64,000 nucleotides of DNA from Candidatus Saccharimonadales bacterium (GTDB lineage: Bacteria; Patescibacteriota; Saccharimonadia; Saccharimonadales; DATKHC01): contig DATKHC010000004.1 of assembly GCA_035510465.1 (NCBI GenBank), positions 6,481-70,480 on the forward strand, given 5' to 3'. Under the pieces are notes generated by a model. It was not told where the DNA came from. It searched no databases and was given only the letters and a program-made list of their open reading frames with translations. The position numbers and the translations under genes were made by a program. Positions 1-61,096 of this stretch are shown here, in pieces (the first letter of the stretch is position 1; each line of letters starts with the position of its first letter).

Positions 1-1573
1 AAAATCTCACTAGTATTTCATTGATTTGCTCTAAATCTTGTAGTTGACCGATGTAAATAACTAGATTCTTAATAAGTTCGAGGAACTTTGCTTCACTCAC
101 AACTGACGCTTTTAAGTTATTCCTACGTCTTATAATGTCATCAATTTGAGGTTGATAACTTGGTATATCAACTTCGACATACTTCTTAATATCATCTTCG
201 TAATACTTTGCGACATCAGCTTTAGTGGGGTCAGAGACTACACCCTTGGCTCTTTCCAACTCACGCTTAGTCTGTTGCCAGTTGGCTCTTACACGCCGTT
301 CCTCGCTTAGTAATTCTATTTTTTCAGCTTCAACGGCTTCCTCTGCGTCAATAACATAATTCTTATAAGCCTTCTTGAGGTCGAATTCGGCTTCTGAGAG
401 CGTACTTATAGCAGCATTTGTTACAACATGAGCGCGAATCGAGTGCTTACTCTTTTTAGGATTATCGGGATTGCCAATTCTGTAAGGACATTTAGCATAA
501 TCACACCTGAAATACACATAAGTCTTCGTCTTTGTTTTACCCGTACCAGTCGTAGCTATCATGTGGTGGTCGCAGTGACCACAATAAACACGTTTGCGTA
601 ATAAATTGAGAGCTGCTGTCTTTGTAAGTACATTACCTTTAGCAACAATACGTTCCATATTATCTATTCGGTTAAGCTTTAAGAATTCATCAGCAGTTAT
701 CATTGGTTCAAATCCATATAACTTAGTAAGGTCAACGGGTTTTGCTTTACCGTATTGTAAGAATCCTGCGTAGATAGTTTCTCTAAACATATCTGATAAT
801 TTATTATCGCTAAACTTAGTTCTACTTCTGGTTTGCTCACGACCATAGGCTTGCTCATAATTCTGCGTATTGAGCCACTTAGCAATATCAACTAAGTTCT
901 CAGGGTCAGCTTTCATACGTTTCTGAAAAGCTTGTTTAATAATTAAGAAGTTATTACCATCAGGTTCAAGGAACCCCTCATCTAGTATCCTATATCCGTG
1001 GACTAATTTCCCTAGGTATTTTCCTTCTTGTATTCTCCTACCGTATCCACGCAGAACTGATTCGCTTAAATGTTCAGAGTATTGCTTTGATAGTACAAAT
1101 GAAATTCCCAACATCATCTTACCCATAGCAGTTGAATCATAAGTGGCAGTTGCGAATAACAAGTCCTTAATTACATACTTGTCCAGCATATCTATTAATT
1201 CACCCGCTTCACGCATATTCCTAGCGAGTCTATCAGGGTGCCAAGCTATAAGACCCTCGTACTTACCCGTCCTTAAGTCAATCAGCATTTTACTAAATCC
1301 AAGCCTAGTGTCTGCTTCTTTGGCGGAGTGTTCTTCTTTAACTATGTGATAATTTGTAATACCGTGTGGGTCGAGTAGCCGTTCTTTAATATCCTGTAGT
1401 TGGTCGCCAATTGATTTATCTTGTTTCTCGGAGCTTTCATCAGAACTTTTACGAAGATAAATTACATACTTTAAATTCTTCTTGTCTATTTCTCTGTAGA
1501 AATCACCATATCTATTCTCATGTATCGTGGACAATAGTCCCAACATTTGGTTTCGTGATTCTTCATCTTGCAT
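1..1573 (-). CDS. large serine recombinase (phage-integrase type), C-terminus runs off the window start
   Basis: Hand translation of the minus strand from ATG ~1573: MQDEESRNQ..YVIYLRKSSDESSEKQDKSIGDQL (resolvase-type catalytic Ser region), AWHPDRLARN, Cys-rich zinc ribbon (YCGHCDHH..FRCDYAKCPY), coiled-coil tail. Open to position 1, so it is absent from the ORF track. Confidence 0.8.
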   Translation of the reverse strand, partial: MQDEESRNQMLGLLSTIHENRYGDFYREIDKKNLKYVIYLRKSSDESSEKQDKSIGDQLQDIKERLLDPHGITNYHIVKEEHSAKEADTRLGFSKMLIDLRTGKYEGLIAWHPDRLARNMREAGELIDMLDKYVIKDLLFATATYDSTAMGKMMLGISFVLSKQYSEHLSESVLRGYGRRIQEGKYLGKLVHGYRILDEGFLEPDGNNFLIIKQAFQKRMKADPENLVDIAKWLNTQNYEQAYGREQTRSRTKFSDNKLSDMFRETIYAGFLQYGKAKPVDLTKLYGFEPMITADEFLKLNRIDNMERIVAKGNVLTKTAALNLLRKRVYCGHCDHHMIATTGTGKTKTKTYVYFRCDYAKCPYRIGNPDNPKKSKHSIRAHVVTNAAISTLSEAEFDLKKAYKNYVIDAEEAVEAEKIELLSEERRVRANWQQTKRELERAKGVVSDPTKADVAKYYEDDIKKYVEVDIPSYQPQIDDIIRRRNNLKASVVSEAKFLELIKNLVIYIGQLQDLEQINEILVRF

Positions 1574-1604
1574 ATCATAATTCTATAGTAGTGATTCGTT
1601 TTCG

Positions 1605-2183
1605 CTAACTATTAGGTGCTTCTAAACCAATAGCCTTAATCCAATCATTAAATGGTAGCTCTGATAAGCCTACTTCGGGTTCTTTTGAATGAGGCGGTTT
1701 CCAACCAGCAGGAGCAACAATAATTGAAGGTAGATTTAATGTTACCCGTTCTCCATCAATGGCTAACTTTATAGATTTACATAGCATTAGTAGCTTACTT
1801 GGACTATACAGCTCATTTGGATTGACGATACAACCTTGAACCTTAGCTTTCTCGATAACTGACTGATTGTGATTGGCGATAACGGTAACGTAGACATTAG
1901 CTAGGGCTTGTAGGTTCTTATAAGCTATGCGGTGTCGTTCATTAGCTTCTACTCGGTCATCAGCTACCTTTTCCTTGATTTTAATTTCTACAGAATCGGA
2001 CACCTGTTGGCGACTCTCAACAAAGTTCTCTCTAGCCCCGTGTTTCTTTACTTGTTTGAGTGATACACCAAACATTTCAGCTATATCCGAATAGCTAATT
2101 CTATGGTTTTCAGTGTAGAGCAGCTTGATTGCTAACCAATCCACTGATTTTTGTTTATTTGGTCTTTCTATAAGTGTATTCAT
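1605..2183 (-). CDS. helix-turn-helix DNA-binding protein immediately upstream of the serine recombinase (terminase-small-subunit-like N-terminus)
   Basis: ORF track. N-terminal ISYSDIAEMFGVSLKQVKKHGARENF looks like an HTH. Ends 31 nt before the recombinase start, same strand. Confidence 0.4.
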   Translation of the reverse strand: MNTLIERPNKQKSVDWLAIKLLYTENHRISYSDIAEMFGVSLKQVKKHGARENFVESRQQVSDSVEIKIKEKVADDRVEANERHRIAYKNLQALANVYVTVIANHNQSVIEKAKVQGCIVNPNELYSPSKLLMLCKSIKLAIDGERVTLNLPSIIVAPAGWKPPHSKEPEVGLSELPFNDWIKAIGLEAPNS

Positions 2184-2430
2184 ACCCTATTACTAGTGTA
2201 GCAATCAGTAAGGCTGTGTGAATAGCGCACATACTTGCGTTTCTAGCGAGGTTGTTTCAGGAAATGCGATAATATGTTCCCCAACAGAGTAAGGCACGTT
2301 AGAACTGAGCTATGGAGCTTAGAAGCTTGGTTATTCTTAAGCGGATTATCAATGTTAGATTAATGTTTAATAAAATGTGTTTATATTATAAAGTAATAAC
2401 AGCGAATAATGCGGTGGGTGAAAGGTTGAA

Positions 2431-3594
2431 GTGTCAGAAAGAGAAACCATTTTACCGGGATTGATAGATATGCACGTTCATCTGCGAGACCCCGGTTACA
2501 CTGAAGCCGAAGATTTTAATACAGGTACTGCTGCTGCATTAGCGGGTGGCGTTGTAGCGGTATTTGATATGCCGAACAATAAGAACAACCCGACTTTTAC
2601 GCTAGATAGATTAGAAGATAAGTTTAGTGTTGCTAGAGAAAAAGCTCGTACTGATATTGGCTTTTACTTTGGCGCACCACCTAACGAAGAACTTGAAATA
2701 GGTGGTAGCGAATATCAACAACTTGTAGAATTGTTTAGCGAGGCTGGCAATAGAACTTTTGGGCTAAAGCTATACTGCGATATTACTACTGGCAGCGAAC
2801 ATAAACACGGTGCAGAATCATTCCGACCCGTTGTTACGGCTTGGCTGGAAGCTAATCCTAGTGGCTTAATACTAGCTCATACCGAAGGTAGAGAAGCTAC
2901 AGCCGAAATGGTTGATTTAGTCGCGAGACAAATGGGCGGTAGGATTCATATTCCTCATATCTCAAAGCAAGAAGAACTAGAAGAAGTCATAAAAACTAAA
3001 CAAGACCCGACTGTAACAGGTACTGTTAGCACCGGCGTTTGTCCTCACCACTTATTCTTAACGAATGAAGATGTACCTAGCTTAGGTTGGTATGCTCGTA
3101 TGAAACCTAGCCTAGGTACTACAGCCGACCGTAGCTTTTTACGAGCAAATATAGATTTAATTGATGTTGTTGAGACTGACCATGCACCTCATACTCTAGC
3201 CGACAAAGAAAATGCACAAACCAACAACCCAAATGGTGAAGTAGGTACAGGTAAGCCTACTTGCTTTGGCGTTCCGGGCTTAGAGACCATGCTCCCACTA
3301 TTACTTCGCGGTGAGCAAGAGGGCTGGATTACTCGTGAACAAGTAGTAGAGAAGACATCTGTTAGACCAGCCGAAATACTAGATATTGATTTACCTAAAA
3401 CAGAAGTTCATGTTGATACTACACCACAAACTTTTACAGCCAATGATATTCATTCAAGGTGTGAGTGGTCGCCATATGTAGGTATGGAAGTCGGTGGTAA
3501 AATTGGACGAGTCGTTATTAATGGTCAAACTAAGGTATTAAATGGCGAAGTATTAGCACAACCTAGTGATGGGCTTGTGTTGCTTCCTAAGTAA
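2431..3594 (+). CDS. pyrC: dihydroorotase-type amidohydrolase
   Basis: DMHVHLRDPG metal-binding HxH motif and ETDHAPH motif; GTG start. Confidence 0.85.
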   Translation: MSERETILPGLIDMHVHLRDPGYTEAEDFNTGTAAALAGGVVAVFDMPNNKNNPTFTLDRLEDKFSVAREKARTDIGFYFGAPPNEELEIGGSEYQQLVELFSEAGNRTFGLKLYCDITTGSEHKHGAESFRPVVTAWLEANPSGLILAHTEGREATAEMVDLVARQMGGRIHIPHISKQEELEEVIKTKQDPTVTGTVSTGVCPHHLFLTNEDVPSLGWYARMKPSLGTTADRSFLRANIDLIDVVETDHAPHTLADKENAQTNNPNGEVGTGKPTCFGVPGLETMLPLLLRGEQEGWITREQVVEKTSVRPAEILDIDLPKTEVHVDTTPQTFTANDIHSRCEWSPYVGMEVGGKIGRVVINGQTKVLNGEVLAQPSDGLVLLPK

Positions 3595-3606
3595 AGGAGA
3601 TATTAT

Positions 3607-4566
3607 ATGGCAACTTATGAATTAGCAGGAGTAGAACTAGAATCACCGCTTGTAAATGCAGCAGGTTCTATTAACGGTACTAATATTGATACTTTATTGC
3701 GTGAAGTAGAAATGTTGGCGGATACAGGTATCGGTGCAATAACGGGTGGTTCATTTACTCCTCCTGCTCAAGAAGGAAACGCTGTTAAGTTTGGCGAACC
3801 CGTCTATTACCATGACCCTGTCACTGGTAAGACATATAATTCAATGGGCTTACCTAATATCGGCAAAGACGCTGCGGTTGAGTTAGCACCGCAAGTTATA
3901 TCTAGAGCTAACGGGAAGCCTGTTATTTACAGTGGTTCACCTACTAATGCACCAGAACACGGTACTTCAGTAGAACAAGCTACTCGCCTAGCTTATGACT
4001 TTCTAGAAACTGGCGTTGACCTAGTAGAAATAAATGTTAGTTGTCCTAATGTTGTTACTGAAGGCGGTGGTCGGAAGCCTATCATGGGCTATGACCTAGA
4101 GACTATGCAGGAACTTGTTGATTCACTATCAGACCAAGTCGGCGAAGGACAAAGACTTGGTGTTAAGCTGCCACCTTACTTATCTGACGAAGAACGTCTA
4201 GTTGCAACTGACCTAGCTAAAATACTCCGAGCTAGTAATGTATTTAGGTTCATAGTTACCGCTAACACCATACCTAACCAAGAACCAGTAAACGAACAAG
4301 GTGAACATATACTAACTGTTCCGGGCGGTAAGGGGGGTATGAGTGGTCCTGCGACAAAAGAAACTGGACGAGAGCAACTAGCCATGTGGCGGGAGCAAAT
4401 GGGTGATGGTGTTGATATTGTTAGCACACTTGGAGTTGACTCTGGTGGAGAACTTAAATCCCGACTACAGCTAGGTGCTGTAGCTGCTGGCGGTGTAACT
4501 TTCCTGTGGGAAAGCAGTAATTGGAAAGAAGCTGTTACAAAAGTATTGTTTGACTTTGCCGAGTAA
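3607..4566 (+). CDS. pyrD: dihydroorotate dehydrogenase (class 1 type)
   Basis: LVNAAG and INVSCPN motifs; 12 nt after pyrC with an AGGAG RBS. Confidence 0.85.
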   Translation: MATYELAGVELESPLVNAAGSINGTNIDTLLREVEMLADTGIGAITGGSFTPPAQEGNAVKFGEPVYYHDPVTGKTYNSMGLPNIGKDAAVELAPQVISRANGKPVIYSGSPTNAPEHGTSVEQATRLAYDFLETGVDLVEINVSCPNVVTEGGGRKPIMGYDLETMQELVDSLSDQVGEGQRLGVKLPPYLSDEERLVATDLAKILRASNVFRFIVTANTIPNQEPVNEQGEHILTVPGGKGGMSGPATKETGREQLAMWREQMGDGVDIVSTLGVDSGGELKSRLQLGAVAAGGVTFLWESSNWKEAVTKVLFDFAE

Positions 4567-4610
4567 GCTCCTAGACATTAACTAGCCGAAATGCTGTAGT
4601 GTCATAAATG

Positions 4611-4928
4611 TTACGCCGACGGTATTTCCTTGACACTACAGAGAGTATCTAACTGTTTCTGCCAATACTCATATTTATTCATAAAATATCTATAAGTTGA
4701 CTCAGAATTACTACGATTTCGAGAATTCGTCTCTTTTCTTTGCTGAATTCTTATAAGAGCTTGTTCAGACCAAGTTACCTGAGCATTAGCGGTATCTATT
4801 GCTTCTTGTAGTGTAGAATCATCTCTTAAATTAGCTATAACTCTTTGTTTTACCTTACCATCTTCTCTATATGACTGAATTATCTGGTAACTTGGTCTTC
4901 TTGATGATTGTCTTTTTCTAATGAACAT
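4611..4928 (-). CDS. hypothetical basic protein
   Basis: ORF track. N-terminus (SYQIIQSYREDGKVKQRVIANL) resembles the N-terminal segment of some IS4/IS1634-type transposases, but the ORF is only 105 aa. Confidence 0.35.
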   Translation of the reverse strand: MFIRKRQSSRRPSYQIIQSYREDGKVKQRVIANLRDDSTLQEAIDTANAQVTWSEQALIRIQQRKETNSRNRSNSESTYRYFMNKYEYWQKQLDTLCSVKEIPSA

Positions 4929-4945
4929 TCTCTATCACTTTTAAT

Positions 4946-5320
4946 CTAAGTAGCTACTCCGGCTAGGTGAACTAGCTTACCCGATACTGTAAATACTGCA
5001 CTTGGGTAATTTGGTTCTGTTTCAGTATAGGAATCACTTGTTTCATCATCTCTTATATTAACTTCCGCAGTAAAGCGCCGTATCTTACCGTCGTTATCAA
5101 CGAAACTACCAGTTGCAGAACCCCACCCTTGGCCTTCTTCCACCGCTTCAAGTGTACAAGCTTCTGTTAATGTTCCGTCAGGGTGATGTGTATAGCCTTT
5201 TTCGCCTACACCCTTGGCACTAATGCCATAAGTCTGAGTCTCTAACCACTTATTCAGCAACTCTTGCTTCTCGGCTTCTGACCTAGTTAATATCTTAATA
5301 GTATCGTACATACTTCCCAT
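4946..5320 (-). CDS. hypothetical protein
   Basis: ORF track; no motif recognised. Confidence 0.4.
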   Translation of the reverse strand: MGSMYDTIKILTRSEAEKQELLNKWLETQTYGISAKGVGEKGYTHHPDGTLTEACTLEAVEEGQGWGSATGSFVDNDGKIRRFTAEVNIRDDETSDSYTETEPNYPSAVFTVSGKLVHLAGVAT

Positions 5321-5640
5321 AAACTCTTGTCCCTCACTATACTTAAAGTTTGATTGATTTTTGGATATTTGCTTTAGTATGCTTTATGTTACACCTATAG
5401 CATTACCATTTCAACTACATTATTTAACTGTAGTTTGAGAACGCTGTGGCATAGTAGTTAAGAGTACGATATAACGCTGTCATATCTACAGAACAAGCAA
5501 GCTTTTCGGCTTCTTGGGAGTAAAATCAAAGTCTTTAAACATATTAAGCACACTAGCAGTACTAGAATATCTGTCCAGTATCTCATTTATTAAGTCTTCT
5601 CGTGGAGTTTGAGCTGACTCTGCGTTGTGCAGCCAGTAAG

Positions 5641-5685
5641 TTATTGTATCTCTTAATTTGGTAGGTATGGCTATAGGGTTCGAAC
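5641..5685 (+). repeat. type-c linker module, copy 1 (TTATTGT.TCTCT..GGTATGGCTATAGGGTTCGAAC)
   Basis: Aligns by eye with 12721-12765 and 13721-13767. Contains an inverted T-loop-like GGRTTCGAAC. Preceded by ..CAGCCAGTAAGTTATTGT, similar to the CAGCCATAAAGTTATTGT that spans the 12715/12716 junction. Confidence 0.6.
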
Positions 5686-5709
5686 GCTTTAGTCGTGTTT
5701 CGGTAGTGC

Positions 5710-6276
5710 TTGCAATTTTCAGTGCCTGAACTCATATTTAACGTAATGTTACTTAGAACCGAGACGGGGTTAAAAGAGTTAACCGATTTTCCTGATGAAC
5801 CAATCCTGACAGTTTTAGATCATGAAGACTTTGAAGTGTTATTGGGAGCTCTAGATTCTCCCGTCAACGCCTGGCAAGCAACAGCGTATGAGTGTGAAGA
5901 TTCCCGCATAGACTACGAGCACAGGTTAGCAACCTCATATTATGGAGTTTTATATCACAAGCCGAGCAAGCCAGACGAAGATGAGCTGGGGGAGGTGAGA
6001 GAACGGCCACATATGGGGATATTGATTCAAGACTTGCCATTTGTGATGAGCGGGTGCGCCCGCGCTATTGGTTTAAAGGCAAACAGAGGTAATAAAAGAA
6101 TCATTGAAACCGCAATGACAATGTTGCCCGTCGTAAGAGAAGCAATTGACGACCTACATTACTTAGAAGTGGAAAATTCTGACTTGAAATACAAGCCCTA
6201 TACGGCAGAGGAGATAGGTGGATGGCGAGACATAGACACAGAGTTAGCGAAACTTAAAACAAGAGCTAGTGTTTAA
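5710..6276 (+). CDS. hypothetical protein (first visible cassette; start possibly at ATG 5746)
   Basis: ORF track with a TTG start; followed 9 nt later by a repeat copy. Confidence 0.45.
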   Translation: MQFSVPELIFNVMLLRTETGLKELTDFPDEPILTVLDHEDFEVLLGALDSPVNAWQATAYECEDSRIDYEHRLATSYYGVLYHKPSKPDEDELGEVRERPHMGILIQDLPFVMSGCARAIGLKANRGNKRIIETAMTMLPVVREAIDDLHYLEVENSDLKYKPYTAEEIGGWRDIDTELAKLKTRASV

Positions 6277-6285
6277 CTTTTTACG

Positions 6286-6314
6286 GTACGGAACTCAACC
6301 TCGAGTCCCAGCCA
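6286..6314 (+). repeat. 29-nt cassette repeat
   Basis: GTACGGAACTCAACCTCGAGTCCCAGCCA, followed by AGCATAAGCGGTTTGA. Confidence 0.9.
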
Positions 6315-6333
6315 AGCATAAGCGGTTTGATAT

Positions 6334-7551
6334 TTAAAATTTCAGAGTCGCAAAGTAATCGTCTGGGGTTTCAGTTCGTCTTATTAACTCAACTGTATTG
6401 TCTGGTCGCAACAGCAATTCAGCTGATCTCAACATCCCGTTATAGTTAAAACCCATAGTGTGTCCATGTGCACCAGCGTCGTGAATTATTACGACGTCTC
6501 CAACCTCTATTTCCGGTAGTTTACGATCTATGGCAAACTTATCGTTGTTTTCGCATAATGAGCCTGTTAAATCGTAAGAATTAGTACCAGAGCCGCCTTT
6601 ACCCAAGATCGTTATCTGATGATAGGCTCCGTACATACCTGGTCTCATCAAATTGTGCATCGAGGCATCTAACCCTATAAAAGTCTTATAGGTATGTTTT
6701 ATATGACGGACTTTGGTCACCAAATAGCCATGCGGCCCAGTTATATACCTACCGCATTCCATAAATACGGCCGGTTCGTAGGGTAAATAAGTTCTAAGTA
6801 GTTCTTCAACTTCTTGAGAAAAACCATCAATATCAAACTCTTTTTCTTCTAGTTTATAGGGAATGCCTATGCCACCACCAAGATTAATAAATTCAAGTTC
6901 AATATTGTTGGTTTCATAGATTTCTTTAGCAAGATCAAATAAGGCTTTAACTATTTCTAGAGCTACACTCTTATCTAGATTATTACTAATAACCATAGCA
7001 TGTAGTCCAAATCGTTTAACGCCTTTTTGCTGGGCTTGCTTAATGCCATCAATAATTTGTTGTTTTGTCATACCAAACTTGGCTTCTTCGGGTTGGCCAA
7101 TAATTTCATTGCCGTGAACTTGATCGCCAGGATTATAGCGAAAACATAACAAATCCGGTAACCCAGCTTCTTTTTCTAGGAAATCAATGTGAGAGATATC
7201 ATCCAGGTTAATAATGGCATCTAGCTCATGTGCCTTCTTAAAATCTGCAGCTGGAGTATCATTTGAGCTAAACATAACGTCACTGCCTTTAGCTCCAATT
7301 CTTTCTGCGAGTAGAAGCTCAGTATAAGAGCTACAGTCTAGACCCATACCCTCAGAAAGTAGTATTTCTAGGATTTTTGGGTTTGGGAGCGCTTTGACGG
7401 CAAAATAGTTTCGGAAGCCCTTATTCCATTTAAAAGCCTCTTTAATCTTTTGAGCGGCACTTCTGATACTACTTTCATCATAGACATAGAAGGGCGTAGG
7501 ATATTCTTCGGTGGCTTTTTTAATGATATTTTCATCAATTACCCTTCTCAT
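6334..7551 (-). CDS. fold-type III PLP-dependent decarboxylase (diaminopimelate/ornithine decarboxylase family)
   Basis: FAVKALPN (PLP-Lys region), LGGGIGIPY glycine loop, CENNDKF motif. Inverted relative to the flanking repeats. Confidence 0.75.
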   Translation of the reverse strand: MRRVIDENIIKKATEEYPTPFYVYDESSIRSAAQKIKEAFKWNKGFRNYFAVKALPNPKILEILLSEGMGLDCSSYTELLLAERIGAKGSDVMFSSNDTPAADFKKAHELDAIINLDDISHIDFLEKEAGLPDLLCFRYNPGDQVHGNEIIGQPEEAKFGMTKQQIIDGIKQAQQKGVKRFGLHAMVISNNLDKSVALEIVKALFDLAKEIYETNNIELEFINLGGGIGIPYKLEEKEFDIDGFSQEVEELLRTYLPYEPAVFMECGRYITGPHGYLVTKVRHIKHTYKTFIGLDASMHNLMRPGMYGAYHQITILGKGGSGTNSYDLTGSLCENNDKFAIDRKLPEIEVGDVVIIHDAGAHGHTMGFNYNGMLRSAELLLRPDNTVELIRRTETPDDYFATLKF

Positions 7552-7580
7552 TTGTCTATTCTACCAGTTTGAGCTAAATC

Positions 7581-7609
7581 GTATGGAATTCAACCTCGAG
7601 TCCCAGCCA
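7581..7609 (+). repeat. 29-nt cassette repeat
   Basis: GTATGGAATTCAACCTCGAGTCCCAGCCA, followed by AACGTAAGAAGTTT. Confidence 0.85.
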
Positions 7610-7625
7610 AACGTAAGAAGTTTAC

Positions 7626-7649
7626 GCGACTATACCCTTAAAGCAAGTA
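7626..7649 (-). repeat. module B repeat (reverse orientation)
   Basis: GCGACTATACCCTTAAAGCAAGTA is the reverse complement of TACTTGCTTTAAGGGTATAGTCGC. Followed by TCTAGTTCGAGTCTAG at 7658-7673. Confidence 0.6.
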
Positions 7650-7685
7650 GATCATTTTTCTAGTTCGAGTCTAGTGAACTCTTAT

Positions 7686-7714
7686 TTGACATAATCACAA
7701 CCTTTAAATAAACT
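7686..7714 (+). promoter_or_regulatory. sigma70-like promoter TTGACA-17-TAAACT
   Basis: TTGACA at 7686, 17-nt spacer, TAAACT at 7709. The same architecture is conserved upstream of the paralogue at 13783. Confidence 0.55.
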
Positions 7715-7759
7715 GGAGGTATTCTTTAAACAATCAAAAACAAAAAGGATTATAAAAAT

Positions 7760-9028
7760 ATGAAACTTCTCAAACTAAATCAAGAAGGTATAGCTCACTG
7801 GTTGGTACCTGCTTTAGTCATGGCTATAGTGGGGGTAGTAGGCGTAAGAGTACTGACAGCTACCCATGCTGCTGCGCCGTCTAGTGTGACAACTTCTAAT
7901 GCGTCTAAGCCTACCCCGCTTATTTATACCTCTTCTACCAGTTCAGGAACCACTTACTCAGTATATGCGTACGACTCAAGTGCAAAATCGAACCTCATCG
8001 AAGGACCATCGGCCAATACTGCTTATCAGTATCCGTCATATTCACCGAACGGTAAGCAAGCCGTATGGGTTCAGACTAATACCAGCGGTAGCAATACTGG
8101 CTATATGCAATTCTATAACGCCAATAATCAAACATTAACAGGCAACTACGTTCTTCCTGGTGGAGAAACAATAAGCGGGGGTGGACTATACGAAGTTAAG
8201 CCAGCATGGTTCCCTGGCAGTAGTAAGATAGCATTTGCACTAGAGAGTTCATCTGGAATATATTCAATCCAGACACTAACAACTTCTGGAAATTGGCATG
8301 ATGTCGCTAATCTATCAAGTTCATACGGAAACATAGATAGTGTAGCTGTAACGAACGACGGCAATTATGTGGTGTTTGGAACTAGCACAGGTGTCTATGC
8401 GGTTAAAGTATCAGATCCTAGTAAAATAACTACACTATGGAACGAGAGCGACGCCTTGCTGAAAGGACCAGTTGACCCTTCAGATACAAATTGTTACGCA
8501 ACGGAAGCACAACCAGGCACAACTGATGGAGTTGGTTGGATATGTAACTACTCTGGAAGTAACGTTAATGATTCGGGGTGGGAGGTAGATTCCGGTCTTA
8601 TTAAAGCTAGCTCTTACACCACAATATACTCAGATCAGTATTCAGGCACAGGGACAGCAACCTTTTATAATATTCAAGACCTAGCATGGTCGCCTAACGG
8701 AAATGAACTAGCGCTAGATACGATTAAGGAACACGTTGTTGGAAATAGTGAGTCTTGCGGCAAAGACACAGTACAAACCTCTATTCTCGGGTTAACAGAT
8801 TCGAAAGGAGCTAGCCCTACTAAAATAGCCAGTGGTCAAGTTAACCCTTCTCCTTGTAAAGGAGGAGGTAATGAAACATACGATAACAACGACCTCGCCT
8901 GGAGCCCTGATGGGAGTAGTCTAGCTTACATAGACAATGATTACATTTATGCAATACCTCCAAGTAATAGTAGCGGCTCATCAGCACCTGTACTTGTCTC
9001 TAGCAACTCTGCCGAACTAGATTGGTAA
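7760..9028 (+). CDS. membrane-anchored/secreted TolB-like beta-propeller protein
   Basis: N-terminal anchor MKLLKLNQEGIAHWLVPALVMAIVGVVGVRVLTATHAA. PD40-like repeats (YSPNGKQ, AWSPNGNELA, AWSPDGSSLAY). Confidence 0.65.
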   Translation: MKLLKLNQEGIAHWLVPALVMAIVGVVGVRVLTATHAAAPSSVTTSNASKPTPLIYTSSTSSGTTYSVYAYDSSAKSNLIEGPSANTAYQYPSYSPNGKQAVWVQTNTSGSNTGYMQFYNANNQTLTGNYVLPGGETISGGGLYEVKPAWFPGSSKIAFALESSSGIYSIQTLTTSGNWHDVANLSSSYGNIDSVAVTNDGNYVVFGTSTGVYAVKVSDPSKITTLWNESDALLKGPVDPSDTNCYATEAQPGTTDGVGWICNYSGSNVNDSGWEVDSGLIKASSYTTIYSDQYSGTGTATFYNIQDLAWSPNGNELALDTIKEHVVGNSESCGKDTVQTSILGLTDSKGASPTKIASGQVNPSPCKGGGNETYDNNDLAWSPDGSSLAYIDNDYIYAIPPSNSSGSSAPVLVSSNSAELDW

Positions 9029-9069
9029 GCTCGGGATGCCTGTAACTTTGGGGATTAAGAGGTTTATAG

Positions 9070-9160
9070 GTACGGAACGCGGACTTGATAATCAAACAAT
9101 GTCTATCTAGAAAATAATTGAATACTATCCTACTTGCACTCGAGGGATAAGCCCCACTTC
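9070..9160 (+). repeat. split/degenerate cassette repeat
   Basis: GTACGGAAC at 9070 then unrelated sequence; degenerate tail CACTTCAAATTCTAGCCA ends ~9160. Confidence 0.4.
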
Positions 9161-9178
9161 AAATTCTAGCCAAAATAG

Positions 9179-9204
9179 TTACTTGCTGTCATGGGATAGT
9201 CGCC
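9179..9204 (+). repeat. module B repeat
   Basis: TTACTTGCTGTCATGGGATAGTCGCC; compare 56406-56431. Confidence 0.6.
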
Positions 9205-9215
9205 GAAGTTTATAG

Positions 9216-9244
9216 TTGACGATACATAGCTTCTGTATTATAAT
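9216..9244 (+). promoter_or_regulatory. sigma70-like promoter TTGACG-17-TATAAT
   Basis: TTGACG at 9216, 17-nt spacer, TATAAT at 9239; upstream of proB. Confidence 0.5.
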
Positions 9245-9418
9245 AATCTTTATGTTAAAAACTTACCAAATCGCTATTTCAGTCCTTTCTCCTCCAGCAC
9301 CTACACAGCAGCTGGGGTAAGTTATATATTTCATTAAGTAATCACTAGTCAGTCTAACGCCCCAGCCAAGGGGCGTTTTAAATGCCTTTACCCAGATCTG
9401 ACTTTTTTGGATACTTAA

Positions 9419-10210
9419 ATGGAAAATTTAGATAAAAAAGACCTGCTGGTAGTTAAGGTAGGCACAAACTTACTTGTAGATAAAACTCAAGATCAGGAAA
9501 AATTAAACGACAACTCGTTCATACACATCGGCTCACAGGCACTTGAGCTTACGGAGAGTGGATACGGAGTCGTCATTGTATCATCCGGCGCAGTAACAGC
9601 TGGTGTAATTAGTGATGGCAAAAAACGTGACGGAACTGAAGAAATGGTTGAATTACAGAGATATGCAGCTCGAGGGTGGGACTCTGTTGTTAAAGCGTGG
9701 AAGCGGGCTATTGGATCTAATAGAGTAAGTTCAACCCTACTTACCAAAAGAGAGTTACGTGATCAGAAGACCCGTAAATCAGCGCTTGGGGTTATTGCAT
9801 GCTGCCTTGGCCACCAAGATATCTTTATCGTGAACGAGAATGACACTATTAGTGATGACGAGCTGAAGTATGGCAATAATGACACCTTGGCGGGTGAGCT
9901 AGCTTCCACTCTTGCAGTTGCTGGCATATTTAAATCGGCTAGATTAGTGTTATTAACTGATAAAAGTGGTCTTAACAGAGATAAGAACGACGATTCAACA
10001 CTAATTAGAGTAGTTAGTGATATAGAATCAGTACGGCTATATGCAGATGATTCTGGTGATATAAACTCTAAAGGAGGGATGTTAACTAAATTAAATGCGG
10101 CAGAACATGCTAAATTCTTCGGGATTGAGACGTTTATTGCTGGAGGTGCGGAGGATAGTTCGATTACTCGGGCAGTTAGCGGAGAGATCGGTACACGCTT
10201 TAAAATCTAA
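9419..10210 (+). CDS. proB: glutamate 5-kinase (amino-acid kinase fold, no PUA domain)
   Basis: VVKVGTNLL, VSSGAV and GNNDTLA motifs. Confidence 0.75.
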   Translation: MENLDKKDLLVVKVGTNLLVDKTQDQEKLNDNSFIHIGSQALELTESGYGVVIVSSGAVTAGVISDGKKRDGTEEMVELQRYAARGWDSVVKAWKRAIGSNRVSSTLLTKRELRDQKTRKSALGVIACCLGHQDIFIVNENDTISDDELKYGNNDTLAGELASTLAVAGIFKSARLVLLTDKSGLNRDKNDDSTLIRVVSDIESVRLYADDSGDINSKGGMLTKLNAAEHAKFFGIETFIAGGAEDSSITRAVSGEIGTRFKI

Positions 10211-10222
10211 GTAGACCTTGAC

Positions 10223-10251
10223 GTGCGGGGTTCAACCTCTATTCCCGGCCA
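10223..10251 (+). repeat. 29-nt cassette repeat (divergent copy)
   Basis: GTGCGGGGTTCAACCTCTATTCCCGGCCA, followed by AACATAAGCG. Confidence 0.75.
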
Positions 10252-10362
10252 AACATAAGCGTAATAATATGGCCGAGTGAGTACCCCGACAAAAAGCCAC
10301 GATAACCCCGACATTTTGGCTTAATACTTGCCATATACATACATGGAGCATACAATTAGTGT

Positions 10363-10620
10363 ATGAGTAATTATAAAACAATAAATATATCTTTGCCCGA
10401 AGATCTTCTTAAGAAAGTTGATGAAGAAGCAAGATCCGAATTTGCTAATCGAAGTGACTTCATAAGGGATACCTTAGTGCGTAGGTTAAAACACCAAAAA
10501 GTTATTGATGAATGGGGAGATGAAGGAGAATGGGAAACCATTGTCAATTTCAAGAGTATAGATTCATCTGGAATTAAGATTGAAGATGCCATAAAAGCGC
10601 TCGGTCAACTAACAAAGTAA
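10363..10620 (+). CDS. ribbon-helix-helix (CopG-type) antitoxin
   Basis: INISLPEDLLKKVDEEARSEFANRSDFIRDTLVRRL is a typical RHH. It ends 5 nt before the toxin gene. Confidence 0.7.
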   Translation: MSNYKTINISLPEDLLKKVDEEARSEFANRSDFIRDTLVRRLKHQKVIDEWGDEGEWETIVNFKSIDSSGIKIEDAIKALGQLTK

Positions 10621-10625
10621 GAGTT

Positions 10626-10871
10626 ATGGCCGACAAGATTGCCAAATTACTATCAAAAATCCCTATAAAAGATTTACTTAGAATTCAAGAGGCATTAAAG
10701 AAAATCAAATCGCTGCAACTTGAAGGACTGAATATTAAGGCTATTAAAGGTCAGAAAGATATATTTAGAGTCAGAATTGGAAGTTACAGGATAGTCTTCA
10801 AGATAAATGACAAAAATATTCGACTTCTAAAAATTGATAAAAGAAACGAAAAGACCTACAGAGGTTTCTGA
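10626..10871 (+). CDS. RelE/ParE-family toxin
   Basis: 81 aa; FRVRIGSYRIVFKINDKNIRLLKIDKRNEKTY matches the RelE/ParE C-terminal pattern. Confidence 0.7.
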   Translation: MADKIAKLLSKIPIKDLLRIQEALKKIKSLQLEGLNIKAIKGQKDIFRVRIGSYRIVFKINDKNIRLLKIDKRNEKTYRGF

Positions 10872-10878
10872 TTAGGTT

Positions 10879-10907
10879 GTACTGAACTCGACCTCGATTC
10901 CCAGCCA
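10879..10907 (+). repeat. 29-nt cassette repeat
   Basis: GTACTGAACTCGACCTCGATTCCCAGCCA; 7 nt after the toxin stop. Confidence 0.85.
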
Positions 10908-10911
10908 GGAC

Positions 10912-10940
10912 TTGACATTAGTTGGTATATATATTATTAT
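10912..10940 (+). promoter_or_regulatory. sigma70-like promoter TTGACA-17-TATTAT
   Basis: Begins 5 nt after the repeat. This makes the track start at 10912 unlikely. Confidence 0.45.
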
Positions 10941-10947
10941 ATTCTTT

Positions 10948-11223
10948 ATGTTTAAGTCTAAATCAAGTAATGAAGGTTCTGCCAGAACTAATTGTTTTGA
11001 TACGTTTGATTCAACAACTAATGGCACCCAAATACCGAAAAGACAAGAACCCTCAAGTGTATACGCTCCAGGCGATGACCCATTTGATCCTTTTGCCATG
11101 GCCGAAGTAGATCCAAGTACTTTTCCAGCAGCTCAATTAGACGAGGCACTCGCGAATGACGCACTATGGAGAGCGTACGAAAGCCAGCCATTAGTCGTTA
11201 TAGATTACGACAAACTAAGATAG
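10948..11223 (+). CDS. hypothetical small protein
   Basis: In-frame ATG at 10948 within track ORF 10912..11223; no motif recognised. Confidence 0.35.
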   Translation: MFKSKSSNEGSARTNCFDTFDSTTNGTQIPKRQEPSSVYAPGDDPFDPFAMAEVDPSTFPAAQLDEALANDALWRAYESQPLVVIDYDKLR

Positions 11224-11285
11224 TTTAGTTTTTCTTCTGATCTGTAGCAAAGTTCAAAATAGTTCGAAATTGTTATAATAGCTTA

Positions 11286-11942
11286 ATGAATGAATCTGTT
11301 GATGATTTAGCTAGAACACTCCTAGACTATATGAAAATGAATACGCCCGTAGAAAAGTCTGACGTCCTTATTGGCATGGGCGCATTGGACATAAGGATAG
11401 CTGAGCGAACTGCTCAATTATTCTTAGATGGATATGGCAAATATATTATTTTTACTGGTGGACTGGGCAAAATCACTAAACACACTCATACACAAACCGA
11501 AGCAGAACGATTTAGGGATACGGCAATAAAGATGGATGTACCGGAAGATAAGATTTTACTTGAGAAAGAAGCAACTAACTCAGGAGAAAATATTGTATTA
11601 GTCCAGGAGTTGCTTGAAAGTAAGGATCTTCACCCTAAGTCACTGCTTGTCGTTACAAAATCGTACATGGAACGAAGAATTTATGCTGCTTACAAAAAAC
11701 AGTGGAAAGATAAAGCTGCCAGAATTATAGTTACCTCACCACAAATTACATACGAAGAGCATTTCAATGAAGACATCCCAAAAGATCTATTTATAAATGT
11801 CATGGTCGGTGACCTGCAGAGAATTAAAGTATATCCTAAGCAGGGCTTTCAAATAGAGCAGAATATTCCGGAGAACGTCTGGGAAGCTTACAAGAAGTTG
11901 GTTAGATTAGGGTATACGGATTTTGTTATTAAGAATACTTAG
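11286..11942 (+). CDS. YdcF/DUF218-family protein
   Basis: VLIGMGALD..IIFTGGLG..TEAERFRDTAIKMDVPEDKILLEKEATNSGENI matches the DUF218 pattern. Confidence 0.65.
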   Translation: MNESVDDLARTLLDYMKMNTPVEKSDVLIGMGALDIRIAERTAQLFLDGYGKYIIFTGGLGKITKHTHTQTEAERFRDTAIKMDVPEDKILLEKEATNSGENIVLVQELLESKDLHPKSLLVVTKSYMERRIYAAYKKQWKDKAARIIVTSPQITYEEHFNEDIPKDLFINVMVGDLQRIKVYPKQGFQIEQNIPENVWEAYKKLVRLGYTDFVIKNT

Positions 11943-11980
11943 TCAATCAAGGTTCGAAAATCGTCCCTTATTGACAGCCA
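11942..11980 (+). repeat. hairpin variant of the cassette repeat ending AGCCA
   Basis: GTCAATCAAGG-TTCGAAAATCGTC-CCTTATTGAC + AGCCA: a 10-bp imperfect stem with a T-loop-like TTCGAAA. It occupies the position of the 29-mer. Confidence 0.6.
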
Positions 11981-12026
11981 ATATTTCACCTCTGTGAGTT
12001 TTTATGCTCACCTCAGTTCGAATCCC
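11981..12026 (+). repeat. type-b linker module
   Basis: ATATTTCACCTCTGTGAG..CTCACCTCAGTTCGAATCCC; compare 15203, and 56446 and 57758 in reverse. Confidence 0.6.
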
Positions 12027-12081
12027 TTATGGGTTCCTCCGCAAAAAGTCGTTTGAAATTTGTGGCTGTTATTATGTAGTC

Positions 12082-12675
12082 ATGAGCGAATCAAAGTTAA
12101 ACATTAGTGAACTCCTTAATAGCAAACGACCCAAAGCTGGTAAAACGAAATTTATAGCAATAGATGGTCATGGAGGAGCTGGTAAATCAACTTTGGCTAA
12201 TATGCTTTCTAAACAATTTAACGCACAATTGGTCCCCATTGATGACTTTGCAAGCTGGGATAACTCTGATTGGTGGCCACAAGTTATAAAGAACATATTT
12301 GAGCCGATATCGGGTGGAGCAACTTCACTTAACTATCCTCGTTCTTCTTGGTGGGAGGATCATCACCCAGAGCCTGTTGTCAATCAACCGGTTACAGACG
12401 TAATGATTCTAGAGGGGGTAAGTTCCTCAAGAACCGAATTTCGTAAATATCTAAGTCTGATTATCTTCGTAAACACGCCTAAAGATCTGTGTATGAAAAG
12501 AGGCATCGAAAGAGACTTGAGCACCGGAAAATCTGTAGAAGAGCTGACGGAAATGTGGACAAAGTGGTATCAAGAAGAAGATGGATACATAGCTAGAGAT
12601 CACCCTCGGGATTTTGCTGATGTAGTGATCGACGGGACTCGACCTTACAATGAGCAAATAGTTACAGCCACTTAA
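12082..12675 (+). CDS. P-loop nucleoside/nucleotide kinase-like protein
   Basis: Walker A in IAIDGHGGAGKSTLANML. Start moved to MSESKLN because the track N-terminus overlaps the type-b module. Confidence 0.55.
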   Translation: MSESKLNISELLNSKRPKAGKTKFIAIDGHGGAGKSTLANMLSKQFNAQLVPIDDFASWDNSDWWPQVIKNIFEPISGGATSLNYPRSSWWEDHHPEPVVNQPVTDVMILEGVSSSRTEFRKYLSLIIFVNTPKDLCMKRGIERDLSTGKSVEELTEMWTKWYQEEDGYIARDHPRDFADVVIDGTRPYNEQIVTAT

Positions 12676-12686
12676 GCTTTTAGATT

Positions 12687-12715
12687 GTACGGAACTCAAC
12701 CTCAACCCCCAGCCA
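12687..12715 (+). repeat. 29-nt cassette repeat
   Basis: GTACGGAACTCAACCTCAACCCCCAGCCA. Confidence 0.85.
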
Positions 12716-12720
12716 TAAAG

Positions 12721-12765
12721 TTATTGTCTCTGTTATTTTACTGAGTATGAATATAGGATTCGAAC
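12721..12765 (+). repeat. type-c linker module, copy 2
   Basis: TTATTGTCTCTGTTATTTTACTGAGTATGAATATAGGATTCGAAC. Confidence 0.6.
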
Positions 12766-12771
12766 TTTGTT

Positions 12772-13686
12772 ATGATGAGTCCAGTTATGGACGACCATTT
12801 TGAAAAAAATGCCTTGAGTTGGGGAGAGGGTGGAGCAGCTTGGCTTAAGAGCATTCCAAAAGTTATCAAAAAATATGAAAGTAGGTGGTCGATTAAAGTC
12901 TTGCCGCCTTACACGCTTAGCTTTAATTACGTAGCGCCTGTCCAAAGGGCTGATGGATCGATGGCAGTACTTAAAATGATCTATCCGGGTGACCTGGAGT
13001 TTAAATCTGAAATTAAAGCGCTAGAATACTTTAAAGGTAATGGCATTGTTAAGCTGCTAGAAGTAGATGAAAAAGACGCGATAATTCTACTGGAACATAT
13101 TGCCCCGGGTAAACCGCTGTCTTCTTTAGATAACGACGATCAAGCAACCAAAATAATTGCCAAGGTTATAAAGAAATTACAGGAGAAATCATCAACTGCT
13201 AACAATTTTGTCAGTATCAATGACTGGGTTTCAGAAATACCAAAATATAAACAAGGATTTCTAGGTGAACAAGCTCCATTACCAACATTATTAGTAAATA
13301 AAGCTGAGATATTATTTAAACAGCTTATTGCAACTTCTGCTAAGCCTATACTTGTCCATGGTGATCTGCATCACGATAATATACTTCAATCAAATAAATC
13401 TGGATGGCTAGCAATCGACCCCAAAGGCGTTTCGGCTGAACCGGCTTACGAAGTGGCAGCTATGATTCGTAACCCCTACGAGAAGCTCAAAGATATACCA
13501 GATCTTGCACCTTTACTGCGAAGACGGATTACTATTTTATCCGAAGAACTAGAAATTGACCCCCAGCGTATTTTGGATTGGTGCTTTGCGCAGACAATGC
13601 TCTCAGCGGTATGGAGTGTTGGAGGAGTCAAAGGCCCCGAACACGCTCTAAGAGTCGCGGAAACTTTAGACACACTTGCACTTTAA
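12772..13686 (+). CDS. aminoglycoside phosphotransferase, APH(6)/streptomycin-kinase-like
   Basis: HGDLHHDNIL catalytic loop, LAIDPKG, and overall APH(6)-like layout. Confidence 0.7.
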   Translation: MMSPVMDDHFEKNALSWGEGGAAWLKSIPKVIKKYESRWSIKVLPPYTLSFNYVAPVQRADGSMAVLKMIYPGDLEFKSEIKALEYFKGNGIVKLLEVDEKDAIILLEHIAPGKPLSSLDNDDQATKIIAKVIKKLQEKSSTANNFVSINDWVSEIPKYKQGFLGEQAPLPTLLVNKAEILFKQLIATSAKPILVHGDLHHDNILQSNKSGWLAIDPKGVSAEPAYEVAAMIRNPYEKLKDIPDLAPLLRRRITILSEELEIDPQRILDWCFAQTMLSAVWSVGGVKGPEHALRVAETLDTLAL

Positions 13687-13689
13687 GCG

Positions 13690-13718
13690 GTACGGAACTC
13701 AACCTCAATTCCCAGCCA
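13690..13718 (+). repeat. 29-nt cassette repeat
   Basis: GTACGGAACTCAACCTCAATTCCCAGCCA; 3 nt after the stop. Confidence 0.9.
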
Positions 13719-13720
13719 TG

Positions 13721-13767
13721 TAGTTTTTCTCTCTGTTAATTTTGCGGTATGGTTATAGGATTCGAAC
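13721..13767 (+). repeat. type-c linker module, copy 3
   Basis: TAGTTTTTCTCTCTGTTAATTTTGCGGTATGGTTATAGGATTCGAAC. Confidence 0.6.
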
Positions 13768-13782
13768 TTTCTAATCCGTTAC

Positions 13783-13811
13783 TTGACATAACCATTAGCT
13801 TTACCTAAACT
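13783..13811 (+). promoter_or_regulatory. sigma70-like promoter TTGACA-17-TAAACT
   Basis: Same hexamers and spacing as 7686-7714. Confidence 0.55.
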
Positions 13812-13867
13812 GAAAGTATTCTTTAGAAATTAAAACAATGAAATAACAAACAAAAAGGAATTAAAGT

Positions 13868-15088: not shown

Positions 15089-15173
15089 TTCTGTATAACC
15101 TGGCTAATCATTAAGTCACCGAATCTGTTAATTCTGATTCTATGGGTATAGGAGTGACTTATTTATCTGTACT

Positions 15174-15202
15174 GTACGGAACTCAACCTCAATTCCCAGC
15201 CA
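15174..15202 (+). repeat. 29-nt cassette repeat
   Basis: GTACGGAACTCAACCTCAATTCCCAGCCA. Confidence 0.9.
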
Positions 15203-15247
15203 ATATTTCACCCCTGAGTACATTTGCTTCCACCTCTGTTCGAATCC
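15203..15247 (+). repeat. type-b linker module
   Basis: ATATTTCACCCCTGAG..CCACCTCTGTTCGAATCC. Confidence 0.6.
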
Positions 15248-15298
15248 TTTATGCATACAGTAATAGATTTATAGAGCCAAATATTATATAATATTCGT

Positions 15299-15877: not shown

Positions 15878-15881
15878 ACAC

Positions 15882-15910
15882 GTACGGAACTCAATCTCGA
15901 TTCCCAGCCA
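15882..15910 (+). repeat. 29-nt cassette repeat
   Basis: GTACGGAACTCAATCTCGATTCCCAGCCA, followed by AAGCGTAAGCGTTTT. Confidence 0.9.
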
Positions 15911-15973
15911 AAGCGTAAGCGTTTTAGGTTCGTTAATTTCGTTCGGCTATCAGATAAATTAAAATTGGAGAGG

Positions 15974-18312: not shown

Positions 18313-18344
18313 ACCTACAGATAAAATTATTACATCATTAAATC

Positions 18345-60984: not shown

Positions 60985-61016
60985 TATTTCTGGATTAGCT
61001 TTAAGACGCTTATGCT

Positions 61017-61096
61017 TGGCTGGGTTGCTAGGATTCGAACCTGGGACCGAGTACAACTTGCTACGGAAGGTGATCGCCCTCTTTATTAATATCCCA
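61017..61096 (-). pseudogene. tRNA-like remnant that shares both ends of the 29-nt repeat
   Basis: Minus strand reads ..CCGTAGCAAGTTGTACTCGGTCCCAGGTTCGAATCCTAGCAACCCAGCCA, followed by AGCATAAGCG. It has a canonical T loop and a GCCA end. The acceptor pairs only 5/7, there is no D arm, and the anticodon-like loop CCGTAGC lacks U33. Confidence 0.5.

Follow-up and report, generated by a model that had tools for sequence, protein, structure and literature searches.

A 64,000-nucleotide (nt) stretch of contig DATKHC010000004.1 from a Candidatus Saccharimonadales bacterium (the whole stretch is hereafter called the window) carries two arrays of a conserved 29-nt repeat (the 29-mer) and, at its left edge, the gene of a large serine recombinase (LSR), which raises the question of whether the enzyme and the repeats belong to one recombination system. 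An earlier reading made from the letters alone (the sequence-only reading) had stated that nothing links the two and had treated any link as speculative. Here, we find that the 3' end of the LSR gene crosses an attachment (att)-type junction whose core is shared with the 29-mer, and that in relatives of this LSR the same junction carries arms from tRNA-Gln or arms related to the 29-mer; a link in the sequence therefore exists. The caution was sound in one respect, namely that we infer rather than observe that this LSR made the arrays. The explanation that we favour, with confidence somewhat above even, is that the LSR is the integrase of small elements targeting tRNA-Gln, that it lies at an attL-type junction heading array 1 and that the 29-mers represent a P half-site plus core of the same att family. 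Judged from these sequence relations, the LSR would be the best candidate for the enzyme that built the arrays.

The LSR gene runs off the left edge of the window:

Window 1573 to 1, minus strand: LSR gene, codons 1-524 of 561, ATG start, single open frame

As the sequence-only reading had reported, the frame from about 1573 to 1 is uninterrupted (524 codons) and has no stop inside the window. The missing part was obtained from the Logan contig L001 (loci and contigs are given by such labels where they have to be told apart), which was retrieved via look-up of the complete protein encoded by the neighbouring partner gene, a search that returned two Logan contigs. L001 is 100% identical to window 1-12183 and reaches 3.6 kb past the left edge; coordinates were converted as window position = 12184 - L001 position. 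It places the last 37 codons to the left of the window and the stop at about window -112. The full LSR has 561 amino acids (aa) and equals, residue for residue, the NCBI protein HUD06434.1, which is annotated as 'recombinase family protein [Candidatus Saccharimonadales bacterium]' and comes from a metagenome-assembled genome. Three Pfam domains were detected above the curated cut-offs: Resolvase (PF00239, residues 37-186, E 8e-19, profile positions 2-145 of 145), Recombinase (PF07508, residues 211-302, E 2e-8) and Zn_ribbon_recom (PF13408, residues 324-389, E 4e-6). The best PHROG match was PHROG 95 'integrase' (7e-58). In an alignment of 20 sequences the catalytic residues Y39-x-R41-K42-S43 (the Ser motif) and D114-R115-x-x-R118 are invariant, as are the zinc-ribbon cysteines C331, C334, C357 and C362. 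The AlphaFold2 model (mean pLDDT 79) contains two long antiparallel helices, residues 399-447 and 449-488, which on this model form a coiled coil embedded in the zinc-ribbon domain. Foldseek searches with the whole chain returned the SPbeta integrase as best match (5e-17), followed by the phiC31 integrase, the LI integrase and Bxb1 (E 5e-17 to 2e-12 for SPbeta and phiC31), and a sequence search of the PDB gave a catalytic-domain structure as the sole match. Pfam, PHROG 95 and AlphaFold2 with Foldseek agree on the phage-type serine integrase architecture that the sequence-only reading had proposed. Identity to GenBank phage enzymes is at most 27% and that to the best IMG/VR relatives 33-34%, and no close relatives were found in IMG/VR or among GenBank phages. 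The open reading frame (ORF) is a genuine, divergent large serine recombinase, and by its sequence an intact, probably active integrase.

The connection to the repeats lies at the end of this gene. The final LSR codons, ...LNPAWLGLLDSNQT followed by the stop, are encoded by TGCTTGGCTGGGATTACTGGATTCGAACCAGACC, the reverse complement of a tRNA T-arm and acceptor, GGTCTGGTTCGAATCCAGTAATCCCAGCCA, and the gene end runs antisense over this tRNA-Gln-like T-arm and acceptor, which ends in CCAGCCA. The att junction formed here spans L001 12258-12330, with the core CCAGCCA at about window -86 to -80 on the plus strand, and reads GGTTCGAATCCAGTAATC-CCAGCCA-AGCAGGATTT, with ...AATC before the core. The 29-mer with one of its flanks, type A, reads ...ATTC-CCAGCCA-AGCATAAGC and has 13 consecutive bases in common with the LSR junction (TCCCAGCCAAGCA); the LSR-junction core, TCCCAGCCA(AGCA), recurs as the 3' portion of the 29-mer together with this flank.

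The same arrangement recurs among the relatives of the LSR. ARAGORN found a complete tRNA-Gln(CTG) antisense inside the 3' end of the LSR ORF in L005, L007, L010-L012 and L021 (homologues at 54-70% identity), and conserved host synteny (metK, mgsA, tgt and others) lies beyond that tRNA-Gln in the homologue loci. Among the 20 closest proteins, the C-terminal tails of eight translate a complete antisense tRNA-Gln(CTG), two resemble another complete antisense tRNA, three, including the window LSR, come from partial tRNA arms and four from non-tRNA P arms beside CCAGCCA; the remaining three fall outside all classes. The LSRs from IMG/VR at 33-34% identity end inside antisense tRNA-Gly(GCC) (L022 11557-11632 and L023 10390-10465), and more distant homologues from bacteria of the candidate phyla radiation (CPR) have tails typical of antisense tRNA. 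From these tails, the whole family appears to insert at tRNA 3' ends. An ORF that runs across the att site is a family-wide habit, and the target tRNA varies (tRNA-Gln in this clade). A literature search for serine recombinases that use tRNA genes in Saccharibacteria or Patescibacteria gave no result. As a separate observation, the island beside the P0011 LSR contains a second, shorter LSR (L006 2626-3930, 434 aa), near a partial tRNA-Gln arm at L006 4622.

For comparison, all sites were laid out around CCAGCCA; arms were labelled B (tRNA-like) or P1, P2 and P3 (non-tRNA), and flanks A, B or C. The 29-mer, GTACGGAACTCAACCTCGATTCCCAGCCA, occurs in 21 window copies at up to 9 mismatches, against 0 in 20 shuffles. 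The arrays comprise the following sites:

Window 6286 to 18373, plus strand: array 1, ten P1 29-mers (6286, 7581, 10223, 10879, 12687, 13690, 15174, 15882, 16811 and 18345)
Window 6286 to 6329, plus strand: first 29-mer (P1 arm and core) with type A flank, pointing the same way as the LSR junction
Window 11952-11980, plus strand: P2-type arm in array 1
Window 54113 to 60653, minus strand: array 2, ten P1 29-mers
Window 56371-56399, plus strand: inverted 29-mer-like copy in array 2, 4 mismatches, core CCACCCA
Window 61002 to 61075, minus strand: head of array 2, pseudo-tRNA-Gln arm (T-arm and acceptor, GTTCGAATCCTAGCAAC-CCAGCCA) with type A flank

All sites of array 1 are on the strand of the LSR junction, with one or two genes between neighbours. 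Array 2 mirrors array 1 on the opposite strand, its head arm and the arm over which the LSR gene ends being paralogues, and its inverted copy at 56371-56399 is compatible with a past inversion. The units are mostly single genes of 0.3-3.3 kb in mixed orientation. Upstream of each 29-mer the sequence is unique, and downstream there are few flank types: A, AGCATAAGCNTTTTG; B, ATATTTCACCYCTGA...CCACCCCAGTTCGAATCC; and C, AAATGGTTACTTGCTGTGAGGGG.... Two other identities of these sites were tried and rejected. When four sites were folded as single-stranded DNA they reached z of -1.8 to +1.8 against shuffles, no better than shuffled sequence, which excludes attC- or terminator-like hairpins; and ARAGORN together with Rfam, at gathering and permissive thresholds, gave three ordinary tRNAs only, so that neither the pseudo-tRNA arms nor the 29-mer are taken as RNA genes.

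Around the core, the same arms and flanks reappear in different combinations. A tRNA-like arm is joined to an LSR end in the window, L004 and L020, a full tRNA to an LSR end in L005, L007, L010 and L021, and a tRNA-like arm to type A at the head of array 2 (window 61075..61002). The 29-mer arm is joined to an A, B or C flank in both arrays (P1/A about 10 times, P1/B 3 times, P2/B once). P2 is joined to an LSR end in L019 and P3 to an LSR end in L006 (P0011), and P3-type arms can be read in the tails of P0012 and P0017 as well. In L005, L007, L010 and L019 these P arms are also present as isolated sites, which share the strand of the junction and lie 4-10 kb away from the LSR towards the island, and the P0012 tail is encoded by an arm near-identical to the isolated site L010:3279. 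Such precise swapping of arms around a common core is what site-specific recombination at CCAGCCA leaves behind.

Serine integrases recognise an attP of about 50 bp and an attB of about 40 bp, each built of two half-sites that are related by dyad symmetry and flank a central dinucleotide. In 9/9 tRNA-type arms GTTCGAA, the T-loop sequence, begins 17 nt from CCAGCCA. The best GTTCGAA-like match (0-2 mismatches) lies 22 nt from the core in 8/10 distinct P arms, including the 29-mer and 11952-11980, and 21 nt from it in the other 2/10. The published rule for serine integrases puts the zinc-ribbon motif of attB half-sites 5 bp nearer to the centre than that of attP half-sites (PMC3783163). The step from 17 to 22 nt equals this shift; on this reading the tRNA arm would be a B half-site and the 29-mer arm a P half-site. 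Dyad symmetry, pooled for the ten P arms against the LSR-end arm with the axis at the left edge of CCAGCCA, gave matches at 50/120 outer positions compared with 30.5 +/- 4.7 in shuffles (maximum 47 in 2000) and no signal at neighbouring axes, figures which, like the geometry counts, overstate independence as the P arms are related to one another.

The 29-mer was also found beyond this genome. A pattern scan returned one locus in representative genomes, five metagenome contigs and no viral contigs, these contigs being too short for an LSR co-occurrence test. In unrelated metagenome contigs the 29-mer is kept with 0-1 mismatch, and the genes between its copies are unrelated from contig to contig. 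The one representative-genome locus belongs to the 779,761-bp chromosome OY969420.1, a metagenome-assembled genome, and has a perfect 29-mer with type A flank (L013 7246-7274) and a diverged copy (6 mismatches) 1.4 kb away. In L018, one of the metagenome contigs, the type B flank comes directly after a genuine tRNA-Gln(TTG), and 545 nt further along that strand there is a 29-mer with type A flank. Fusions of this B flank (79-87% identity over 54-84 nt) to 29-mer-type arms are present in the window (15174, 56491, 57804 and, with P2, 11952) and in L016 and L017; in the mechanism set out below, these fusions would be attR-type products. Apart from this, the type B module itself (about 55 nt; L018 575-704 and window 15203-15254, 56446-56490, 57749-57803 and 11981-12031) contains the GTTCGAATCC motif once more, at a distance of about 40 nt from the core, and it receives no tRNA call from ARAGORN or Rfam.

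These data bear on the idea that the 29-mers are dispersed intergenic repeats, be they like repetitive extragenic palindromes or miniature inverted-repeat transposable elements, uptake, regulatory or terminator sequences, and that their likeness to the LSR junction is incidental. The copies are indeed intergenic and highly conserved across metagenomes, the array genes have mixed orientation, and the related complete genome has one exact and one diverged copy (in the 8-kb locus retrieved). Dispersed repeats would hardly explain, however, that each array keeps a single orientation behind a tRNA-Gln-like arm, that the core is the precise point at which left and right arms change partners or that the flank following a genuine tRNA-Gln is also joined to 29-mers, and the sites have neither hairpin or terminator potential nor an Rfam match. 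We consider this idea very improbable.

In the mechanism that we propose instead, the attB of this LSR clade would be the 3' end of tRNA-Gln, and that of the CPR family the 3' end of a tRNA gene. The LSR gene would end on the element side of att, its last codons reading across the crossover region. The junction at the window edge would be of attL type, made up of a tRNA-Gln-like B arm, the core CCAGCCA and the LSR gene end, with housekeeping genes on its left and array 1 on its right. The arrays would be stacks of small elements or cassettes joined by recombination at the tRNA-Gln-like site, in which internal P/core/A junctions are attP-like and P/core/B junctions attR-like. The predicted attP is GTACGGAACTCAACCTCGATTC-CCAGCCA-AGCAGGATTTAACACG, and the crossover dinucleotide is placed at or near CC, the left edge of CCAGCCA. 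Protein architecture, junction types, arm geometry and tRNA-Gln anchoring are shown by the data, and we infer that the array recombinations were made by this LSR rather than by a lost paralogue.

Several observations weigh against this explanation. None of the LSR junctions has a P1 (29-mer) arm, no ...WLGIEVEF tail was present among 120 homologues, and the link between P1 and the clade consists of arm homology and geometry only. The exact 29-mer pattern is absent from L004 and L005, and the LSR loci of relatives have at most 2 P sites besides the LSR junction, versus 10-20 here. No empty site was found, and the relatives of the ABC-2 permease (67-73% identity) are not syntenic downstream, so that no boundary could be drawn. 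Besides the relatedness of the P arms mentioned above, the dyad symmetry of single sites (P1/A, tRNA/B and B/A) is within the random range. Canonical LSRs pair attP with attB only, and serial insertion would need an attL x attP-like reaction or another route. Another recombinase may be encoded elsewhere, in the window beyond the array regions covered by the Pfam scan or in the rest of the genome.

Some of these points would be accommodated if the LSR moves only its own small element and the arrays were made by another enzyme that shares the tRNA-Gln 3' end, either a tyrosine integrase encoded elsewhere or a lost LSR variant, the shared core then reflecting a shared target. The lack of an LSR junction with a P1 arm and the few P sites without exact 29-mer at the loci of LSR relatives fit this scenario, tRNA 3' ends are common targets of unrelated integrases, and tycheposons, which are compared below, are mostly tyrosine recombinase elements. 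Nevertheless, the 29-mer shares only 9 nt with the tRNA, and its remainder is laid out like the P arms (motif at -22) to which LSR gene ends of this clade are joined. Tandem tyrosine-integrase elements usually have longer partial tRNA copies between them, and none were seen here. The Pfam scan of the array-region genes (about 4.6-25.2 kb and 53.5-61 kb of the window) found no tyrosine recombinase (Phage_integrase) domain in or beside either array; an IS3 transposase (18711-19797) was the sole other recombinase-type protein in the scanned regions. It belongs to an IS3-family insertion sequence (a helix-turn-helix (HTH) ORF and an rve ORF) directly after the last 29-mer of array 1. The central window (about 25-53 kb) and the right end were covered by tblastn for LSR copies only, and no second LSR copy or pseudogene was found by tblastn in the window or in the 29-mer contigs. 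On balance, a separate array-building enzyme appears unlikely, although it is the strongest of the rival readings.

A further reading, which we hold as a tentative possibility, goes beyond stacked elements and sees an integron-like platform for cassette accretion run by the LSR, with the tRNA-Gln-derived head acting as attI, the 29-mer P half-site plus core as attC, and single-gene circles inserted repeatedly at the head. If true, the C-terminus of the LSR would be rewritten by each recombination, and a non-canonical pairing of attL-like with attP-like sites would be required.

With the LSR taken as the integrase of small tRNA-Gln-targeting elements, the first 29-mer (6286..6329) is a candidate for the distal end, as an attR-type or internal junction, of an LSR element of about 6.4 kb, and the genes in between are its candidate cargo:

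Window 2431 to 6276: candidate cargo of the LSR element, comprising an amidohydrolase/dihydroorotase-like gene, a dihydroorotate dehydrogenase gene and three small genes

The assignment of these genes to the element is suggested by the flanking attL-type and P-type sites; the three small genes (4611-4928, 4946-5320 and 5710-6276) have no Pfam match. Array 1 thus reads, from about window -86, as LSR, small terminase (TerS)-like HTH gene, dihydroorotase-like gene, dihydroorotate dehydrogenase gene, three small genes, the 29-mer at 6286 and then the cassettes, which carry an Orn/DAP decarboxylase, PD40-like proteins, an amino-acid kinase, an RHH-ParE pair, DUF218, a nucleoside-kinase-like protein, APH(6) and a beta-lactamase-family protein. 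The cassettes of array 2 include Fic, a HAD phosphatase and many unknowns.

The sequence-only reading had also suggested that the LSR may mark a prophage or island to its left. The 3.6 kb to the left of the LSR gene on L001 encode an ABC-2 permease, an ABC ATPase and TypA/BipA instead, and with this 100%-identical extension a prophage or island on that side was ruled out; the mobile DNA is on the right, array side of the LSR. No phage structural, replication or lysis genes were found in the 3.6 kb on the left of the LSR or the 6 kb on its right. Where a prophage would have contiguous structural, packaging and lysis genes bounded by att sites, the LSR is flanked by the ABC transporter, BipA, pyrC/pyrD-like genes and small unknowns, and the outcome named beforehand as fatal to a link, a complete prophage lacking co-occurrence with the repeat, was not observed. 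The view of the LSR as the mark of a prophage or phage satellite, or as an inactive remnant that has decayed and been domesticated, nevertheless draws on its best PHROG match being a phage integrase family and on the resemblance of its partner to small terminase subunits, as in satellites like the phage-inducible chromosomal islands. Given the gene content on both sides, the lack of close relatives in phage and viral collections and the intact ORF with all catalytic and zinc-binding residues conserved, we regard such an origin as highly unlikely.

The partner gene and the region upstream of it contain two features:

Window 1605 to 2183, minus strand: TerS-like HTH partner, 192 aa, 31 nt upstream of the LSR gene on the same strand
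Window 2177-2224: inverted repeat of 18 nt, imperfect, which overlaps TTCACA-16-TACACT, a promoter-like element directed towards the HTH-LSR genes

The HTH partner described in the sequence-only reading is thus present (ORF 2183..1605), its HTH signal being weak (HTH_23 E 0.002, below cut-off), and it has weak similarity to the PHROG small-terminase families. A homologue with 43% identity lies directly upstream of the LSR in L010, and TerS-like/HTH_23 proteins of about 140 aa do so in L004, L019 and L020; the protein at the partner position in L019 matches PHROG 4102 (6e-20), and L021 has a DUF5681 protein there. The pairing of LSR and partner is kept in 6/9 loci examined. The partner is a candidate for the recombination directionality factor that governs excision by LSRs; it could also be an accessory factor or a regulator, or have a role in packaging. 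Att-like half-sites, which the sequence-only reading had suggested looking for in 2184-2430, were not found there; the only structure is the promoter- and operator-like inverted repeat at 2177-2224, a possible operator that is not att-like.

Further repeats were observed within the arrays. Two paralogous PD40-like secreted proteins (422 and 406 aa) in different array 1 cassettes are encoded by genes whose 5' ends (7752-7878 and 13860-13986) are 80% identical, and both genes have a conserved TTGACA promoter-like leader. The repeat GTATGRWTATAGGATTCGAAC, which resembles an antisense T-loop, occurs about 30 nt downstream of two 29-mers (12745-12773 and 13747-13775) and once in the LSR-proximal segment (5665-5693). 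Module C, GGCGACTATCCCCTCAMAGCAAGTAAC, is present in both orientations (7626-7671, 9156-9204, 55543-55588 and 56383-56431, and, directly behind the LSR stop, L001 12300-12325). Both pseudo-tRNA heads have it on their upstream side, and its reverse complement serves as right flank to some 29-mer-like sites, a pattern that may have arisen from inversions between inverted sites.

Outside the arrays, a third repeat family is present on the minus strand downstream of a tRNA-Asn gene (25148-25222, minus strand), at 20018-20047, 20563-20583, 24078-24098 and 24636-24674. It reads ...AAATCCRACTGCAGCCCGAGCCA-AAGTGCTTMTGGTT, with fragments GCGGAGCCAAAGTGCTTATGGTT, resembles the 3' end of the tRNA-Asn (CTCCGGAGCCA) and brackets luciferase-like monooxygenases, a DinB/MST protein and HicAB; this region looks like a second tRNA-anchored island with an att family of its own. 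Tandem and dispersed repeats of 110-127 nt in large genes for secreted or surface proteins in the central window (32053-32319; 36294-36403 and 37499-37608) appear unrelated to the att system.

Compared with known systems, the enzyme is closest to the phage serine integrases, and the locus fails the defining features of both tycheposons and integrons. With the phage LSRs (phiC31, Bxb1, A118/LI, SPbeta SprA and TP901-1) it shares the resolvase, recombinase and zinc-ribbon domains with an embedded coiled coil, as well as P- and B-type half-sites that, as read here, differ by 5 bp. Unlike them, it would target a tRNA 3' end rather than a protein-coding gene or an intergenic site, it is at most 27% identical in sequence, its ORF crosses the att core so that the tail changes with the recombination state, and it belongs to a small non-phage element beside about 20 P-type half-sites. 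An integrase gene that contains attP is known from the Myxococcus phage Mx8, where integration alters the 3' reading frame of intP; the Mx8 enzyme is a tyrosine recombinase, whereas the window enzyme is a serine integrase whose alternative tails are antisense tRNA or P-arm sequence.

Integrons resemble the locus in their one-directional arrays, cassettes of one or two genes, a conserved separating site and a distinct head site, and also in cassette cargo, here toxin-antitoxin pairs, Fic, an aminoglycoside kinase and a beta-lactamase-family protein. In contrast to integrons, no IntI tyrosine recombinase is present among the array-region genes, the candidate enzyme being a serine recombinase, the window sites lack the single-strand hairpins of attC, and gene orientation is mixed, so that the cassettes are not promoterless. 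Tycheposons of Prochlorococcus integrate at tRNAs, stack successively, with older elements displaced into an island, and carry small adaptive cargo, a minority with an LSR and some with terS (bioRxiv 10.1101/2020.12.28.424599). The tRNA-anchored stacking of cargo elements would be common to both systems, and tRNA-Gln anchoring was seen in the LSR relatives. The repeats between units differ, as they consist here of a conserved non-tRNA 20-nt arm plus a 9-nt core and not of partial tRNAs; no primase, helicase or polymerase was found within about 6 kb of the LSR or among the scanned array genes, the host, a member of the Saccharimonadales, belongs to another phylum, and the units are mostly single genes.

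Serine integrases are valued for genome engineering because their sites are short and simple, and a family that targets tRNA 3' ends and has dozens of natural P-type sites would supply new pairs of sites and enzymes as well as a test case for the control of site pairing. For the Saccharimonadales and other CPR bacteria, which have tiny genomes and few recognised mobile elements, the link between the LSR and the 29-mer makes of the otherwise unexplained arrays a recombination system that can be tested and for which a candidate enzyme is named. If it holds, it would explain where accessory genes such as toxin-antitoxin pairs, Fic, kinases and hydrolases are located and how they arrive, and if the arrays do grow by accretion at the head, the locus would be a dedicated gene-capture system for genome-reduced Saccharimonadales.

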